Positions 13,214 through 46,543 of a stretch of 64,000 nucleotides of DNA are shown in pieces. A program made the translations under genes and the position numbers. The notes beneath the pieces are model-generated. The model was given only the letters and a program-made list of their open reading frames with translations. It was not told where the DNA came from and searched no databases. The stretch is from contig CAYWTB010000016.1 of the NCBI GenBank assembly GCA_964461135.1, positions 84-64,083 on the forward strand, written 5' to 3'. The stretch comes from an uncultured Caldithrix sp. Lineage in GTDB: Bacteria; Calditrichota; Calditrichia; RBG-13-44-9. Each line of letters begins with the position of its first letter. Position 1 is the first letter of the stretch.

Positions 13214-14218
13214 TCAAAAGGTAAAATTCAACGAAAATCGTTGTACATTATCAAAAACACCAAAGGGTGTATAAGCATAATCAAATCCCAGACCAAATTT
13301 TTTAAAACCGAAACCGTAGGAAATATTTTCTTCATCCCGGCTGGAAACATAACCAAGCCTTAGAAAAAATGTACTCTGAAAACCATATTCCAGACCAAGC
13401 CGTGCAAATTCCGGATACGACCTGGGATGGGCGGCATCCACCGAGAATAAAACCCGGTGAACCTCAGAAAATTGAGGCATAAAATCCAGCACATTCATGG
13501 ATACCCCGATATTAAAAGTCAGGGGTAGCTGAAACCCTTCCCTGGCATAACGGACTTCTTTGGAAAAATTCCGCACGGACATGCCGAATACCAGACTTTT
13601 AAAGCCTGTTTTGTAGGTGGTTCCAAGATCGAAAGCGAAAACGGACACTTCATTTTCGATGGCATTCTGATAATCCGGTGCAGGTTCAAGAGAAACAATG
13701 GCCGCACCCAGGTACTGGTCTACTAGTTTCATCTGACCGCCCACTGAAAATTTGTCGGAAAGGCGCCTGGCGTAGCCCAGGCCAATTGAATAAGAGAAGG
13801 GTTGAATCAGGCCTGTTTCGATGAATCCCTGATCATTTCCGGCGATAATTGTACCTTCAATATCGCCATAATCCACGAACAAAAAACTAAATGCGAAAAT
13901 TCCATAGCGCCCGTTAGAGGGCTGGAAAGCACCGGTGACTGAATAGTTATTGATGTCTGCAATCCAGGAATTCTGATTAGCCATCAGGTCAAACCTGATA
14001 TTCATATCCGCCAGAATCGCCGGATTGGACCACAGGGCTGCCGAATAGGCAGGCATGGTGGTCATGGCACCGGCCAGGGCGGCTGAACGGGCGTCCTGAA
14101 TTACACTCAGGAATTGAAAACCGGTCTGTGCAAGTTTTTTGTCGGCCCGGACATTTGAGAACATAACCAGGCAAACCAGCAGTAACGTTAATATTTTTGT
14201 CGTTTTGTGATTCATCAT
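13214..14218 (-). CDS. PorV/PorQ family outer-membrane beta-barrel (paralogue 1)
   Basis: Signal peptide; GFQFLSVIQDARSAALAGA...WSNPAILA, FAFDLG, LPLTFNIG, DYAY; terminal amphipathic strand ending in F. Confidence 0.85.
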   Translation of the reverse strand: MMNHKTTKILTLLLVCLVMFSNVRADKKLAQTGFQFLSVIQDARSAALAGAMTTMPAYSAALWSNPAILADMNIRFDLMANQNSWIADINNYSVTGAFQPSNGRYGIFAFSFLFVDYGDIEGTIIAGNDQGFIETGLIQPFSYSIGLGYARRLSDKFSVGGQMKLVDQYLGAAIVSLEPAPDYQNAIENEVSVFAFDLGTTYKTGFKSLVFGMSVRNFSKEVRYAREGFQLPLTFNIGVSMNVLDFMPQFSEVHRVLFSVDAAHPRSYPEFARLGLEYGFQSTFFLRLGYVSSRDEENISYGFGFKKFGLGFDYAYTPFGVFDNVQRFSLNFTF

Positions 14219-14255
14219 TTAGTGCTCCGATATGGCATTTTATTCATTCTTTAAA

Positions 14256-43624: not shown

Positions 43625-43708
43625 AGCCCCGTTCCGGTTTAAAATCTGTTATTTATATCAGACACATTATTTTTTATTCTCCAAAATGCCTTATACCATC
43701 AACTTATA

Positions 43709-46543
43709 TTAAAACTGAAATGACATCCCCAGGCGTATCTCCCGCGGTTCACTTAACCAGTCTTCCCGCTGGTAAAAGTTATCCAAAAACTCCAGTGGAA
43801 AAAAATCTTCCGGATTCCTCTGGATATTCCGTCCCAGATTGTTGAAAAGGTTTGGATTGGTGGATTGCTCCAGATTGGTTAAAGATTTTCCGGTATTGGT
43901 ATGCACAAAGATATTATTTTCAGTATCAAACAGGTTCCGGACATACAGGAAGATGGAAAATCTGACTTCCCTCATGCGGAAATATTTTTCCAACTTCATA
44001 TCCAAATTGGTATACCAGGGGCGGCGGGTACTGTTCTGTTCAAATATTACCGGCTGAACACTAGGGGGCAAACTGGGGGTATAGGGTGTTCCGTTGCGGA
44101 TGGACCCTATGGCGCTCAGCAGCCAGTTGTCGCTTTTACTTACGGTAAAGGTTCCATTTAAGGTATGGGTGCGGTCAAAGTCCAGGGGAATCAGTTTCTG
44201 AGCCGTAGAACGTCCGGTGCGGGTATCTATGGCCAGATCCAGTGGATCTGTGAAGGAGCCCATGCCCACCTGATAAGTATAATCCAGTGTAGCGGAAAAT
44301 AATCCCCGGGCGGATTTTCGTTTCAGGAAAGAGGCGGTAAATCCCTTCACCTTGGCATAACTGATATTGGTATAAACATTAAAAGCCAGATCATTGGCAA
44401 TATCCCCCGCGATAATTTGCCTGTCTTCAATCAAATTGGTCACATCCTTATAAAATATGGTGAGATCCATTTTAATGTCATCGGTAAACTGCTGTTGCAG
44501 CCCCAGTTCATATTGGGTACTGCGCTCCGGTTCCAGATTGGCATTACCGAAACTGGGCGTGGTGATGAAGCTGTAGTCGACAAAACGGGGATTGCGGTAA
44601 ATGCTGCGAAGGTTGGGATACTGATGAAATATTCCATATGAAAATCTGATGATACCGGTTGAGGTTATGGGAAAACTGAGGCTAATCCTGGGCATCAGGC
44701 TATGTTTAGGTTTGGACCATTTTAAAAATTGCGTATCATTCACTCCTCCCTGGGTATCGACGGTTCCCACCAGGTTCGGGTTGTAAAAAGCCCGGGAATG
44801 AAAGTATTCATAACGCAGGCCGATATTGAAGATAAATTCCCTGGCGAGTTCCATTTTATCCAAAACGTACAGGGCGGCCTGAACCGGTTTGTGATTATAG
44901 GACTGGTAACCGGTATATTTTGGATTCACAGCGGGATCCGGAATAACAAACCGCCCGGTTGAATCGGTATATTGCTCAAAGAGATAGGTAAAGGACTCAT
45001 AGTCCATATCATGAATGGCATATTCCCCCCCGAACTTCAGTTCATGGCTGTTAAGCACCTGGCTGACTACATCCAGTTTCACCAGGTAACTTCGGTTTTT
45101 TTCTTCGGTACGGTCCAGATCGGTTCCCCCGGCGATGTAGGTTGCAGTGGGTGGAATAATCTGGTTAGTAATATCGTTCTGGACGCTGGGAATATAGCGG
45201 GGATCAAGTATATCCTGAAAAACCGAAGTGAGTGCATAATTATAATTCACTCCTACCTTCAGGGTATAAAATGTACGGTTGCTGAGGGTATGGGTTAATC
45301 CCAGCGAATGACTGGTATTCTGTCCAGCCGTATTGGGACGGCCATCCGGAGTAAAGCGATAACTTCTGAACTCGCTGCGGTTATAATGATCGGTATTGTC
45401 ATAGATCAGGTCATAGTTGAATTTCATCTTATTGTTGGGTTTCCAGGTCAGTTTTCCGCTCATATTAATATCATCACGCGTGACCATGGGAACGATGGAT
45501 CGGTCTCCCTGAGCCCCCTGCAGGGAAGTATTCGTCTTGATGAGTACTGTTCCATCAGGTGCGGTTATGAAATATTGTCCCTCCGGATTGATAAGCGGCC
45601 GGTCACTTTGCAAAACCAGGCGGTCCTGGGGATTGTAAATCCGAATACCATAAAGATAACCCTTATCATTCTGATAAACGCCGGAAGCGAAGAAAGTCAG
45701 ATTTTTACCCAGCAGGGGAACCGGTCCGCTCAATGTTCCCTCCAGCCGCCGGTTGTTAAACGGATCGATAGCGTCAATATTAAAAAAAACGTCGCTGTGA
45801 CTGCTGACATGGTCTCCCGTCCAGGCCCGCAAACTTCCGTTATACTTCCGTCCACCGTCCTTGGTCACATAATTAATAACTCCGCTGAGCGCATTGCCGT
45901 ACTCTGCACTGAACGTTCCTGCGGAAACGGATACCTCCTCAATAGCATTGGTCGCCAGCCCCACCCCCTGCGCATTTCCATAGGGATTATTGATGGATAA
46001 TCCGTTCACCTGGTAAGAAATTTCATTGGACCGGCCCCCGCGGATATGCAGAGCACCACTGTTGTCCACTACAATTCCGGCCTGAAGGGCGATGACTTCA
46101 TTCAACTGGTCAACCGGCAGTTCCTGTATAGTCTGAGCGGTAACGGCTACCTGCGTGTTGGTCAGATCCTGACGGACCAGAGGATTCCTCTCACCATAAA
46201 CTTCTACCGCTTCACCTTCCAGCACAGTCTGCTCCAGTTTTTGATCCAGCCGGGTGGTGAAATCAACATTTACCCGTACACCTGTCACCTTCACCGTTTG
46301 ATATCCGATGTAGGTAAAGGTAACGGTGTAAAGCCCGGGAGGAACATTGAGGATGATAAATGTGCCATCGGCATCAGTACCGGCACCCAGAGACGTACCT
46401 TCAACGACAACATTCACACCGGGTAATCCGTCCCCGCTTTCAGCATCTTTTACCACACCGGCAATTTTTCCGGTAGTCCCGGCAAACAGTGAGAGGGACC
46501 ATAGCATGATTAAAATGATAAGGGAAGAAACAAACCTTGACAT
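43709..46543 (-). CDS. TonB-dependent receptor (TBDR3)
   Basis: GTTGKIAG, HIRGGRSNE, GTFSAEYGNALSGVIN, MPRISLSFPI, PREIRLGMSFQF; ATG 46543 preferred. Confidence 0.92.
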   Translation of the reverse strand: MSRFVSSLIILIMLWSLSLFAGTTGKIAGVVKDAESGDGLPGVNVVVEGTSLGAGTDADGTFIILNVPPGLYTVTFTYIGYQTVKVTGVRVNVDFTTRLDQKLEQTVLEGEAVEVYGERNPLVRQDLTNTQVAVTAQTIQELPVDQLNEVIALQAGIVVDNSGALHIRGGRSNEISYQVNGLSINNPYGNAQGVGLATNAIEEVSVSAGTFSAEYGNALSGVINYVTKDGGRKYNGSLRAWTGDHVSSHSDVFFNIDAIDPFNNRRLEGTLSGPVPLLGKNLTFFASGVYQNDKGYLYGIRIYNPQDRLVLQSDRPLINPEGQYFITAPDGTVLIKTNTSLQGAQGDRSIVPMVTRDDINMSGKLTWKPNNKMKFNYDLIYDNTDHYNRSEFRSYRFTPDGRPNTAGQNTSHSLGLTHTLSNRTFYTLKVGVNYNYALTSVFQDILDPRYIPSVQNDITNQIIPPTATYIAGGTDLDRTEEKNRSYLVKLDVVSQVLNSHELKFGGEYAIHDMDYESFTYLFEQYTDSTGRFVIPDPAVNPKYTGYQSYNHKPVQAALYVLDKMELAREFIFNIGLRYEYFHSRAFYNPNLVGTVDTQGGVNDTQFLKWSKPKHSLMPRISLSFPITSTGIIRFSYGIFHQYPNLRSIYRNPRFVDYSFITTPSFGNANLEPERSTQYELGLQQQFTDDIKMDLTIFYKDVTNLIEDRQIIAGDIANDLAFNVYTNISYAKVKGFTASFLKRKSARGLFSATLDYTYQVGMGSFTDPLDLAIDTRTGRSTAQKLIPLDFDRTHTLNGTFTVSKSDNWLLSAIGSIRNGTPYTPSLPPSVQPVIFEQNSTRRPWYTNLDMKLEKYFRMREVRFSIFLYVRNLFDTENNIFVHTNTGKSLTNLEQSTNPNLFNNLGRNIQRNPEDFFPLEFLDNFYQREDWLSEPREIRLGMSFQF

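Follow-up and report, generated by a model that had tools for sequence, protein, structure and literature searches.

Why should the gene for a TonB-dependent receptor be followed, over and again, by the gene for a large secreted protein and then by that for a PorV-like outer-membrane barrel? The question is raised by a stretch of 64,000 nt (the window; positions 84-64083 of contig CAYWTB010000016.1, or C16) from an uncultured Caldithrix sp. of the Calditrichota, in which three cassettes, A, B and C, each encode such a receptor, a middle protein ending in a carboxy-terminal domain (CTD) marked by the motif VPNPY, and a barrel of the PorV/PorQ family. An earlier note on this DNA, made from its letters, had proposed that each middle protein is exported through a type IX secretion system (T9SS), kept on its own barrel and used by its receptor in place of SusD. 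The analysis presented here gives good support to the notion that receptor, partner and barrel form a triad that is very probably a conserved functional unit. The best explanation of the whole, which we modestly favour, is that each cassette constitutes an outer-membrane uptake module with a CTD-anchored partner. The source genome comprises 5.0 Mb in 180 contigs and is 98.8% complete, and the window DNA recurs in nine sequencing runs, all of them of salt-marsh metagenome DNA, one of which may be its source.

The first line of evidence is the number of times the arrangement recurs in the source genome, which was searched as 6,146 crude open reading frames (ORFs) of at least 100 aa against hidden Markov models built from the three window copies. 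Seventeen ORF proteins match the whole VPNPY CTD profile, and 14 of the 17 are directly followed by a PorV-family gene, with partner-to-barrel gaps of -41 to 69 nt in the resulting 14 triads. The receptors make up a distinct set of 15, scoring at least 329 bits against a next best of 135.5, and 14 of these lie directly upstream of a VPNPY-CTD protein. The fifteenth, on contig C7, belongs to a permuted cluster composed of a VPNPY protein, a canonical-CTD protein, the receptor and a barrel. The source genome holds in total 14 triads and one permuted cluster, and this association is far from chance. Within the window, every PorV/PorQ paralogue does come directly after a VPNPY-CTD protein (3/3), as the earlier note had observed, and none of the 11 proteins with a canonical CTD match (nine over the Por_Secre_tail cut-off and two below it) precedes a barrel gene.

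The three middle proteins combine a Sec-type signal peptide with a terminal ..IRIVPNPY.. (A), ..IRIVPNPYY.. (B) or ..VIVVPNPYI.. (C), which is followed by some 100 residues. Along their full length, middle proteins A and B share 36% identity; C resembles them in the CTD only (43% over 97 residues), its body being unrelated to theirs by either BLASTP or hhalign. The idea that all partner bodies belong to a single family was dropped, the hhalign comparison of A-type and C-type proteins having aligned the CTD only (probability 99.9). No Pfam or NCBIfam family was matched in the bodies of middle proteins A-C, and the bodies of all 14 triad partners are likewise devoid of Pfam families. The 888 homologues of middle protein A, of which the best 120 are at least 49% identical, are all named 'hypothetical' or 'FN3 domain-containing'; a search of the PDB with profile A1 matched only an FN3-like stretch, to the N-terminal domain of a pectate lyase; and sequence matches in the ESM Atlas were 'hypothetical' clusters only, from Ignavibacteriota and Fidelibacterota.

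What unites the partners is the CTD, for which an earlier profile of three seeds and a later one (A3) of 14 sequences were built. Sequence comparison sets the VPNPY CTD apart as a class of its own, homologous to yet distinct from the type A CTD of the T9SS. The type A model (PF18962, cut-off 27) finds no match in the three window middle proteins at E <= 0.01, and TIGR04183 (cut-off 23) yields 17.1 bits, in middle protein B only. Canonical CTDs align only to positions ~50-124 of the three-seed profile, and the VPNPY CTD has some 15-20 extra residues between PNPY and the F.NLP strand as compared with them. Neither does it fall within type B, since the best score on the CHU_C model (cut-off 27) is 26.3 bits, in one of the 14 triad partners, the others giving a weaker match or none. 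When set against all PDB sequences, the VPNPY CTD profile matched significantly only the CTDs of PorZ (5m11, E 4.3e-5) and PorU (6za2, E 0.005), and with PorZ the likeness extends to the very C-terminus, which reads ..RFAVIR in PorZ 5m11 and ..KFAVIR/K in the VPNPY CTDs. According to the text available from PMC12365241, it is PorQ and PorV that hold PorZ and PorU at the outer membrane, and a review (PMC10202324, available part) puts forward the proposal that cognate PorV-like barrels shield such CTDs from cleavage. In their sequences, the middle proteins also have the general attributes of T9SS cargo, namely a Sec signal, a terminal CTD and T9SS genes in the same genome. In a library of 1.84 billion representative proteins (50%-identity clusters), the CTD profile matches 24,985 at E <= 1e-3, 6,442 at E <= 1e-10 and 248 at E <= 1e-30, and full-profile matches stop at the protein C-terminus. 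Exceptions are found among the top scorers (P0127-P0131, P0140 and P0143), which are proteins of 1500-3900 aa in which the same beta-sandwich is repeated internally 8-17 times; given that such repeat proteins top the list, the CTD fold also serves as a repeated Ig-like module.

The barrels lie well within the NCBIfam PorV/PorQ family (NF033709, cut-off 90; 200.1, 183.1 and 205.5 bits for barrels A, B and C) and below the cut-offs for PorV proper (NF033710, cut-off 250; 81.7, 67.3 and 79.9 bits) and PorQ proper (NF033711, cut-off 220; 88.8, 86.0 and 79.6 bits). The PorP/SprF model (TIGR03519) gives them 19.8 bits against a cut-off of 90.55. When a profile of the 14 triad barrels was compared with the PDB, the top match was Flavobacterium johnsoniae PorV (6h3i, 125.7 bits), followed by TodX/FadL-type channels; BamG is a weak match to the window barrels. 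The earlier note had suggested that cognate CTDs be modelled on their barrels, and for the one pair so modelled the outcome agrees with its expectation: the complex of CTD-A (125 aa) with barrel A (residues 29-342) attained an ipSAE of 0.92 in three of three runs, as opposed to 0.00 for the best of three controls, with a partner pLDDT of at least 81 and contacts agreeing to at least 81%. The modelled interface takes in RIVPNP and the C-terminal strand. The score mark passed by this model is reached by 58 of 80 solved complexes and by 2 of 110 mismatched pairs, a benchmark that is only roughly valid here, own alignments having been used for the pair. Two further pairs of a CTD protein and a PorV-family barrel lie outside the triads (C5:101162-106548 and C24:3233-8109). 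One of the CTD proteins is a second PorU-like protein of 1676 aa, which scores 250.8 bits against the PorU model and so falls short of the cut-off, and the other, of 1310 aa, has a canonical CTD and is then followed by the barrel. The source genome may make use of private barrels more widely.

The receptors are TonB-dependent transporters by domain content, with CarboxypepD_reg and Plug domains in A, B and C and a match to the TonB barrel model (Pfam TonB_dep_Rec_b-barrel, 110.6 bits) in C. They do not belong to the SusC/RagA family as modelled by TIGR04056 (75.0, 84.2 and 71.8 bits for A, B and C against a cut-off of 368.25), and the matches to this model are confined to their N-terminal 130-230 residues. 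A profile of the 14 triad receptors matched Cir, PhuR, FepA and PqqU in the PDB at 65-85 bits and the solved SusC homologue 8aa4 at 63 bits, in the latter case over profile positions 11-312, that is, the N-terminal part; it is hence no closer to solved SusC than to Cir or FepA. Single receptor sequences matched PDB entries only in the N-terminal domain or the plug.

The earlier note had called for a survey of gene neighbourhoods in other genomes, holding that a triad order not conserved there would speak against its proposal. The order is kept. Full triads were found in 13 of 18 related loci from named genome records, and the 13 come from Calditrichia, Calditrichaceae, KSB1, Melioribacteraceae, Ignavibacteria/-ales/-aceae and metagenome-assembled genomes (MAGs) labelled 'Bacteroidetes UBA2364' and 'uncultured Cytophagia'. 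Of the five remaining loci, one is a partial triad at a contig start, one lies on a contig of only 2.5 kb and three, from Ignavibacteriales/Ignavibacterium, are without a triad. When every CTD match was fetched in three genomes (two Melioribacteraceae and one KSB1, n=38), 29 proved to be in full triads (7/8 and 10/12 in the Melioribacteraceae, 12/18 in KSB1); the other nine include two partial triads, three matches cut by contig ends and four with neither neighbour. All 25 matches of at least 93 bits in these genomes are in triads or partial triads. The CTD variant is present in 8-23 copies (E <= 1e-10) in all 21 genomes of the window's order, which span three families and 14 genera, and in 4-18 copies (E <= 1e-15) in five genomes behind the named loci. 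Since the triad is kept across genomes and phyla, the objection that the note had foreseen falls away.

A rearrangement and two exceptions help to identify what travels together. In KSB1 and the 'Cytophagia'-labelled MAGs, the A/B tandem runs receptor-partner-barrel-barrel-receptor-partner-TIG lipoprotein (L004-L006, L015, L018; L060/L064), and in this rearranged order the number of barrels still equals that of partners. The exceptions are from Ignavibacteriales. Locus L014 (5869-7962) encodes a homologue of body A, 42% identical, that ends in a canonical Por_Secre_tail (40.9 bits), and neither a receptor nor a barrel gene adjoins it. At L012 (4669-7878) a homologue of body A is fused behind a BNR/sortilin-like domain; the match extends only to residue 655, and no CTD match was found. 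From L014 and L012 we infer that the VPNPY CTD travels with barrel and receptor and not with the body. Four loci (L049, L059, L061 and L065) have a second, longer barrel-like ORF (~500 aa) after the first barrel.

The co-phylogeny of the three genes, likewise proposed in the earlier note, points in the same direction. Within the source genome, the distances among receptors, bodies, CTDs and barrels of the 14 triads correlate with one another (Mantel r 0.67-0.88, p <= 1e-4), and the correlation persists without cassette B; across 43 triads from four genomes, Mantel r is 0.76-0.93. The tightest pair in the latter set is that of body and receptor (r 0.93), which also has the strongest residual coupling (partial r 0.72). 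In each of three other genomes (G025, G021 and G022), all four parts choose one and the same triad for 5, 6 and 6 of the 14 triads, these being the triads with clear orthologues, and the barrel tree contains cross-phylum clades with SH-aLRT support of 99-100. The triad genes are thus inherited as a unit, and co-divergence is no proof of contact.

Read along the minus strand, the three cassettes lie where the earlier note had placed them, and its statement that the same gene order occurs three times has to be amended: the order is not identical because P0004, a probable lipoprotein gene, lies between receptor A and middle protein A, making cassette A a set of four genes. P0004 is present in single copy in the genome and matched no Pfam or NCBIfam family. 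Between 26810 and 11927, neighbouring genes overlap or leave gaps of at most 39 nt, and on account of this spacing, and not of promoter or terminator signals, they probably form one operon, which ends in a second probable lipoprotein with a TIG domain. The longest ORF of middle protein B reaches 16556, overlapping receptor B. Upstream of receptor A there is a promoter-like match at 27267 to 27239 (TTGAAA-17-TATAAT, a consensus match only), and neither promoter-like sites (46 found, 37.4 expected) nor terminator-like sites (14 found, 17.2 expected) are enriched in the scanned region. The two predicted lipoproteins are conserved across phyla in A/B-type loci. Homologues of P0004 occupy the equivalent position in L001 and L003 and lie just upstream of the receptor in L017/L042, and BLASTP places homologues of the TIG protein immediately behind the final barrel or partner in L003, L007-L011, L016, L017, L054 and L060, the Pfam TIG domain being confirmed in all three cases examined (window, L017 and L008). 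The TIG lipoprotein could be a surface glycan-binding protein (SGBP) of the A/B-type triad unit. It has acidic residues right behind the lipobox Cys (C/AEEPQ).

The genomic setting is that of an organism with a T9SS and without detectable SusD. The source genome encodes SprA (107 bits), PorU (830.5 bits, cut-off 420) and more than 45 canonical CTD matches, together with a housekeeping PorV-like gene on contig C19 (246.1 bits, cut-off 250) and a PorQ-like one on C94 (219.1 bits, cut-off 220), both outside the triads. SusD (PF07980) has no match in this 98.8%-complete genome, the Bacteroides thetaiotaomicron control being positive, and none of the cassette proteins has a Pfam or NCBIfam SusD match, so that the cassettes do not qualify as canonical polysaccharide utilization loci (PULs). 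The claim that no SusD-like lipoprotein follows the receptors therefore stands as regards homology, in the cassettes and in the genome, and has to be qualified by the presence of P0004 and the TIG protein as probable lipoproteins. The further claim that the partner serves in place of SusD agrees with the lack of SusD matches in the source genome and does not hold generally. Among 301 genomes sampled from the phylum of a Melioribacteraceae genome, which are kin to one another, the CTD variant was found in 155 and SusD in 166: the two occur together in 85 genomes, the CTD variant alone in 70 and SusD alone in 81, and 65 are without either. Strict exclusivity of SusD and the triad was consequently rejected, and, with those 85 genomes carrying both, the triad does not strictly replace SusD. 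Their copy numbers, which are lower bounds beyond 15 and 7 scored candidates per genome, are weakly opposed (Spearman -0.24 over the 301 genomes), and the CTD variant is missing in 54 of the 61 genomes with the top SusD counts ('at least' values).

The flanks of the triads are PUL-like, in that canonical-CTD cargo with CBM_4_9, CBM_20, CBM_48, BNR or GHL10 domains adjoins them, and GHL10-CTD proteins also flank orthologous A-type triads in Melioribacteraceae. The window itself (1-9636, 27444-36299 and 51538-61082) is dense in genes for the degradation and recycling of the cell wall, that is, of peptidoglycan and related glycans (Table 1), a gene content that suggests scavenging of bacterial necromass. 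This wealth of functions that degrade the cell wall makes it reasonable to guess at peptidoglycan, or other glycans of the wall, as the substrate of cassettes A-C. For the A-type loci of Melioribacteraceae, the CBM20/CBM48 neighbours hint at alpha-glucans as candidate substrates. Between receptor C and a divergent FG-GAP-CTD gene there lies a 1.4-kb AT-rich region (46583-48020) with no ORF of at least 120 aa and a GC content of 0.365, as compared with ~0.45 elsewhere.

Table 1. Features of the window, with positions counted from its first nucleotide; in lipobox motifs the slash stands right behind the Cys
Feature	Position	Strand	Remarks
TonB-dependent receptor A	23637..26810	-	1057 aa; N-terminal CarboxypepD_reg, Plug, large barrel (Pfam)
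Probable lipoprotein P0004, cassette A	22685..23647	-	320-aa ORF; likely start MKKISIF; lipobox ..LVCLNSC/DKK
Middle protein A (P0001)	20516..22663	-	715 aa; signal peptide, ~480-aa body, FN3-like domain, VPNPY CTD at 20516-20893
PorV/PorQ-family barrel A	19474..20502	-	342 aa; 14-strand-type; NF033709
TonB-dependent receptor B	16399..19434	-	1011 aa; 44% identical to receptor A
Middle protein B	14256..16388	-	~710 aa from MKIMNQ..; CTD at 14256-14633
PorV/PorQ-family barrel B	13214..14218	-	334 aa; NF033709
TIG-domain probable lipoprotein P0126	11927..13210	-	..LFLLQC/AEEPQ; Pfam TIG; 3 nt after barrel B
TonB-dependent receptor C	43709..46543	-	ATG at 46543; longest ORF from TTG at 46582
Middle protein C (P0003)	40016..43624	-	1202 aa; signal peptide, large body, CTD at 40016-40393
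PorV/PorQ-family barrel C	38881..39993	-	370-aa ORF; NF033709; Pfam PorV 36.9 bits
Intergenic region upstream of receptor A	26811..27443	-	Top sigma-70-like match of the scanned region
FG-GAP protein with canonical type-A-like CTD	36400..38754	-	Pfam; 126 nt downstream of barrel C; an example of the ordinary T9SS cargo beside triads
GHL10-Big_5 protein with canonical CTD	6490..9636	-	Domain matches
GH3-beta-lactamase fusion	27444-30353
HGSNAT-like acetyltransferase	30945-32045
NamZ exo-muramidase	32325-33587
PRiA4_ORF3-like protein (plasmid pRiA4b ORF-3 family)	34739-35206		Among cell-wall recycling genes
NlpC/P60 protein with SH3	35448-36299
NAGPA-CTD protein	1-2427
Amidase_3-CTD protein	2967-5489
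M28 peptidase-CTD protein	51538-52929
M15 D-Ala-D-Ala dipeptidase	53046-53681
Beta-lactamase-family protein	56904-58169
GH18-CTD protein	58590-61082

Taken together, these observations can be arranged into the following mechanism. The middle protein would cross the inner membrane by the Sec pathway and the outer membrane by the T9SS, a route we infer from the presence of SprA, PorU and housekeeping PorV- and PorQ-like genes in the genome. Its VPNPY CTD would not be removed and would stay plugged in the barrel encoded by the adjacent gene, in the manner of PorZ on PorQ and PorU on PorV; sequence likeness and the complex model argue for this retention, which we consider probable. The barrel would then be a stoichiometric membrane anchor, placing a large paralogue-specific surface protein beside the co-encoded receptor. 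The surface protein would capture or process a polymeric substrate and the receptor would import the products, a step suggested by the conserved operon linkage, the co-divergence and the PUL-like flanks, and in A/B-type loci the two probable lipoproteins would belong to the unit as well. Nutrient uptake as the function of the triad seems rather likely to us, and that the partner physically caps the receptor, as SusD does, seems doubtful. Equally doubtful is the most far-reaching form of the idea, according to which the triad would represent a third architecture for TonB-dependent import beside stand-alone receptors and SusCD, with a retained PorZ-like CTD riveted to a dedicated PorQ-like barrel and the partner acting as the substrate-capturing lid of the receptor. 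Such a particle would be ancient in the FCB (Fibrobacteres-Chlorobi-Bacteroidetes) group, given the orthologous triads in Calditrichota, KSB1 and Ignavibacteria, and would be the main means of polymer uptake in SusD-poor lineages.

Several observations weigh against the reading of the triad as an uptake module with an anchored partner. The partners may be enzymes or adhesins, and the A/B-operon lipoproteins could be the true partners of the receptor. The four CTD matches with neither neighbour in the three other genomes, which are weak ones (57-90 bits), have full flanks. The co-divergence is equal to the outcome of whole-cassette duplication alone; the residual coupling of CTD and barrel is weak (partial r 0.18 given the receptor, 43 triads), and that of body and receptor may only reflect longer, less noisy sequences. 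The modelled set consists of one pair, cognate only, with its controls; the pass of CTD-A on barrel A may be a memory of solved PorV-substrate complexes, since such complexes have been solved (8gl6 and others among the PDB matches of the barrel profile), and the model demonstrates likeness, not binding by this copy. In a quick barrel tree of 53 rows, the triad barrels are not resolved as a separate clade from the housekeeping PorV- and PorQ-like genes, and 18 of its 50 inner branches are open, the deep ones among them. Finally, 85 of the 301 surveyed genomes hold SusD along with the CTD variant, as if the two were independent in presence and absence (Fisher p = 1).

Some of these points lead to rival explanations. 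The one to be taken most seriously, which we regard as possible, assumes PUL-like co-regulation without a physical complex, the partner being a barrel-anchored T9SS enzyme or a glycan or peptide binder (a SusG- or SGBP-type helper), the receptor working alone or with lipoproteins, and a shared substrate being the only link between them. The two conserved probable lipoproteins of A/B-type loci, the ordinary CTD cargo with carbohydrate-binding domains that flanks the triads and the coexistence of SusD with the CTD variant in 85 of 155 carriers all fit this account, but the partner gene adjoins that of the receptor in 14 of 15 clusters, the gaps not exceeding 96 nt unless a lipoprotein gene intervenes, and it is body and receptor whose distances agree most tightly, a result confounded by sequence length. 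It is improbable that the middle proteins are ordinary cargo, their VPNPY CTD being a divergent type A signal, shuttled by the housekeeping PorV and cut off by PorU, and that the barrels do something else, such as FadL-like uptake of hydrophobic products or BamG-like aid in receptor assembly. The homology of the CTD to type A over positions ~50-124, the weak TIGR04183 and CHU_C matches, the TodX/FadL-type and weak BamG matches of the barrels and the unseparated barrel tree can all be read in this way. They must be set against the constant ratio of one barrel gene per CTD-variant gene even in the rearranged KSB1 order, the canonical CTD on the L014 body where no barrel adjoins, the absence of barrel neighbours from all 11 canonical-CTD-match proteins of the window, the fact that the closest solved CTDs are two retained ones, and a complex model that beats its controls. 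Export in place of import, with the receptor exporting the middle protein and the barrel anchoring that partner, has a precedent in the TonB-dependent transporter Oar of Myxococcus, which the available text of PMC6434023 describes as required to secrete the protease PopC, and the triad receptors share with Oar an N-terminal CarboxypepD_reg domain and a large size. Yet the partners carry a T9SS-type CTD in a genome with a full-looking T9SS and more than 45 canonical CTD matches, and it is implausible that a plugged 22-strand barrel should let partners of 700-1300 aa pass, so that this possibility appears very remote indeed.

The T9SS has been described mainly from Bacteroidia and Flavobacteriia, where a single PorV serves type A cargo and private barrels serve type B cargo only. 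The closest known counterparts of the triad pairs are PorZ-PorQ and PorU-PorV of Porphyromonas gingivalis, in which a T9SS-secreted protein retains the CTD and has a PorV-family barrel as its anchor, something known there and proposed here; the PorZ and PorU CTDs are also the closest solved matches, and the window barrels fall in the NF033709 family. Those pairs are, however, single-copy secretion machinery, whereas the triads amount to 14-15 pairs per genome, every one of them linked with a TonB-dependent receptor and with a differing, large and family-less body, in a genome that has separate housekeeping PorV-, PorQ- and PorU-like genes. In the available text of PMC12618676, all type A CTDs are said to be recognised by PorV, and for type B cargo this source and PMC10202324 (available parts) report that the gene adjoins that of its own PorV-like barrel, on which secretion depends and which determines where the cargo ends up. 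SprB-SprF of F. johnsoniae and PG1035-PorP of P. gingivalis thus resemble the triads in having the cargo gene next to its own barrel gene. They differ from them in that the triad CTD stays below the CHU_C cut-off, the triad barrels are not PorP/SprF, and the known type B cargo consists of adhesins that go with gliding or with PorE and not with TonB-dependent receptors. With SusC/SusD (RagA/RagB), the triads share a large TonB-dependent transporter with a CarboxypepD_reg-type extension beside the gene of a surface partner, many paralogous co-diverging pairs per genome, and flanks encoding secreted proteins of carbohydrate-binding or glycoside hydrolase type. They differ in that the source genome has no SusD, the receptors fall short of the SusC/RagA model and the partner is not a lipoprotein but a Sec/T9SS-type protein with a dedicated barrel gene.

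Private PorV-like barrels as such are, from the parts of the literature available, already in print (PorZ/PorQ, PorU/PorV and type B CTD/PorP-SprF). Outside subscription journals and supplements, no paper was found that links PorV/PorQ-family barrels or this CTD class to TonB-dependent receptors, nor any literature on the triad partner families, and the triad is not mentioned in the available text of the genome papers on Caldithrix abyssi (PMC5317091) and Melioribacter roseus (PMC3534657). The view expressed in the earlier note, that it knew of no such T9SS-dependent architecture as characterised, is in keeping with that literature, where no description came to light. The triad looks like a junction of T9SS anchoring with what would be TonB-dependent uptake.

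Beyond this locus, the analysis brings forward a third CTD class with private PorV/PorQ-family barrels, present in 8-23 copies per genome in one order and found also in several other phylum-level groups; it goes together with a receptor subfamily and with large proteins of no known family. If the partners work with the receptors, the triads would provide for SusD-free capture of polymers by abundant degraders of sediments and marine habitats, such as the Calditrichota, KSB1, the Ignavibacteria and perhaps the Fidelibacterota, and, if true, this would assign a function to thousands of 'hypothetical' proteins of 700-1300 aa.

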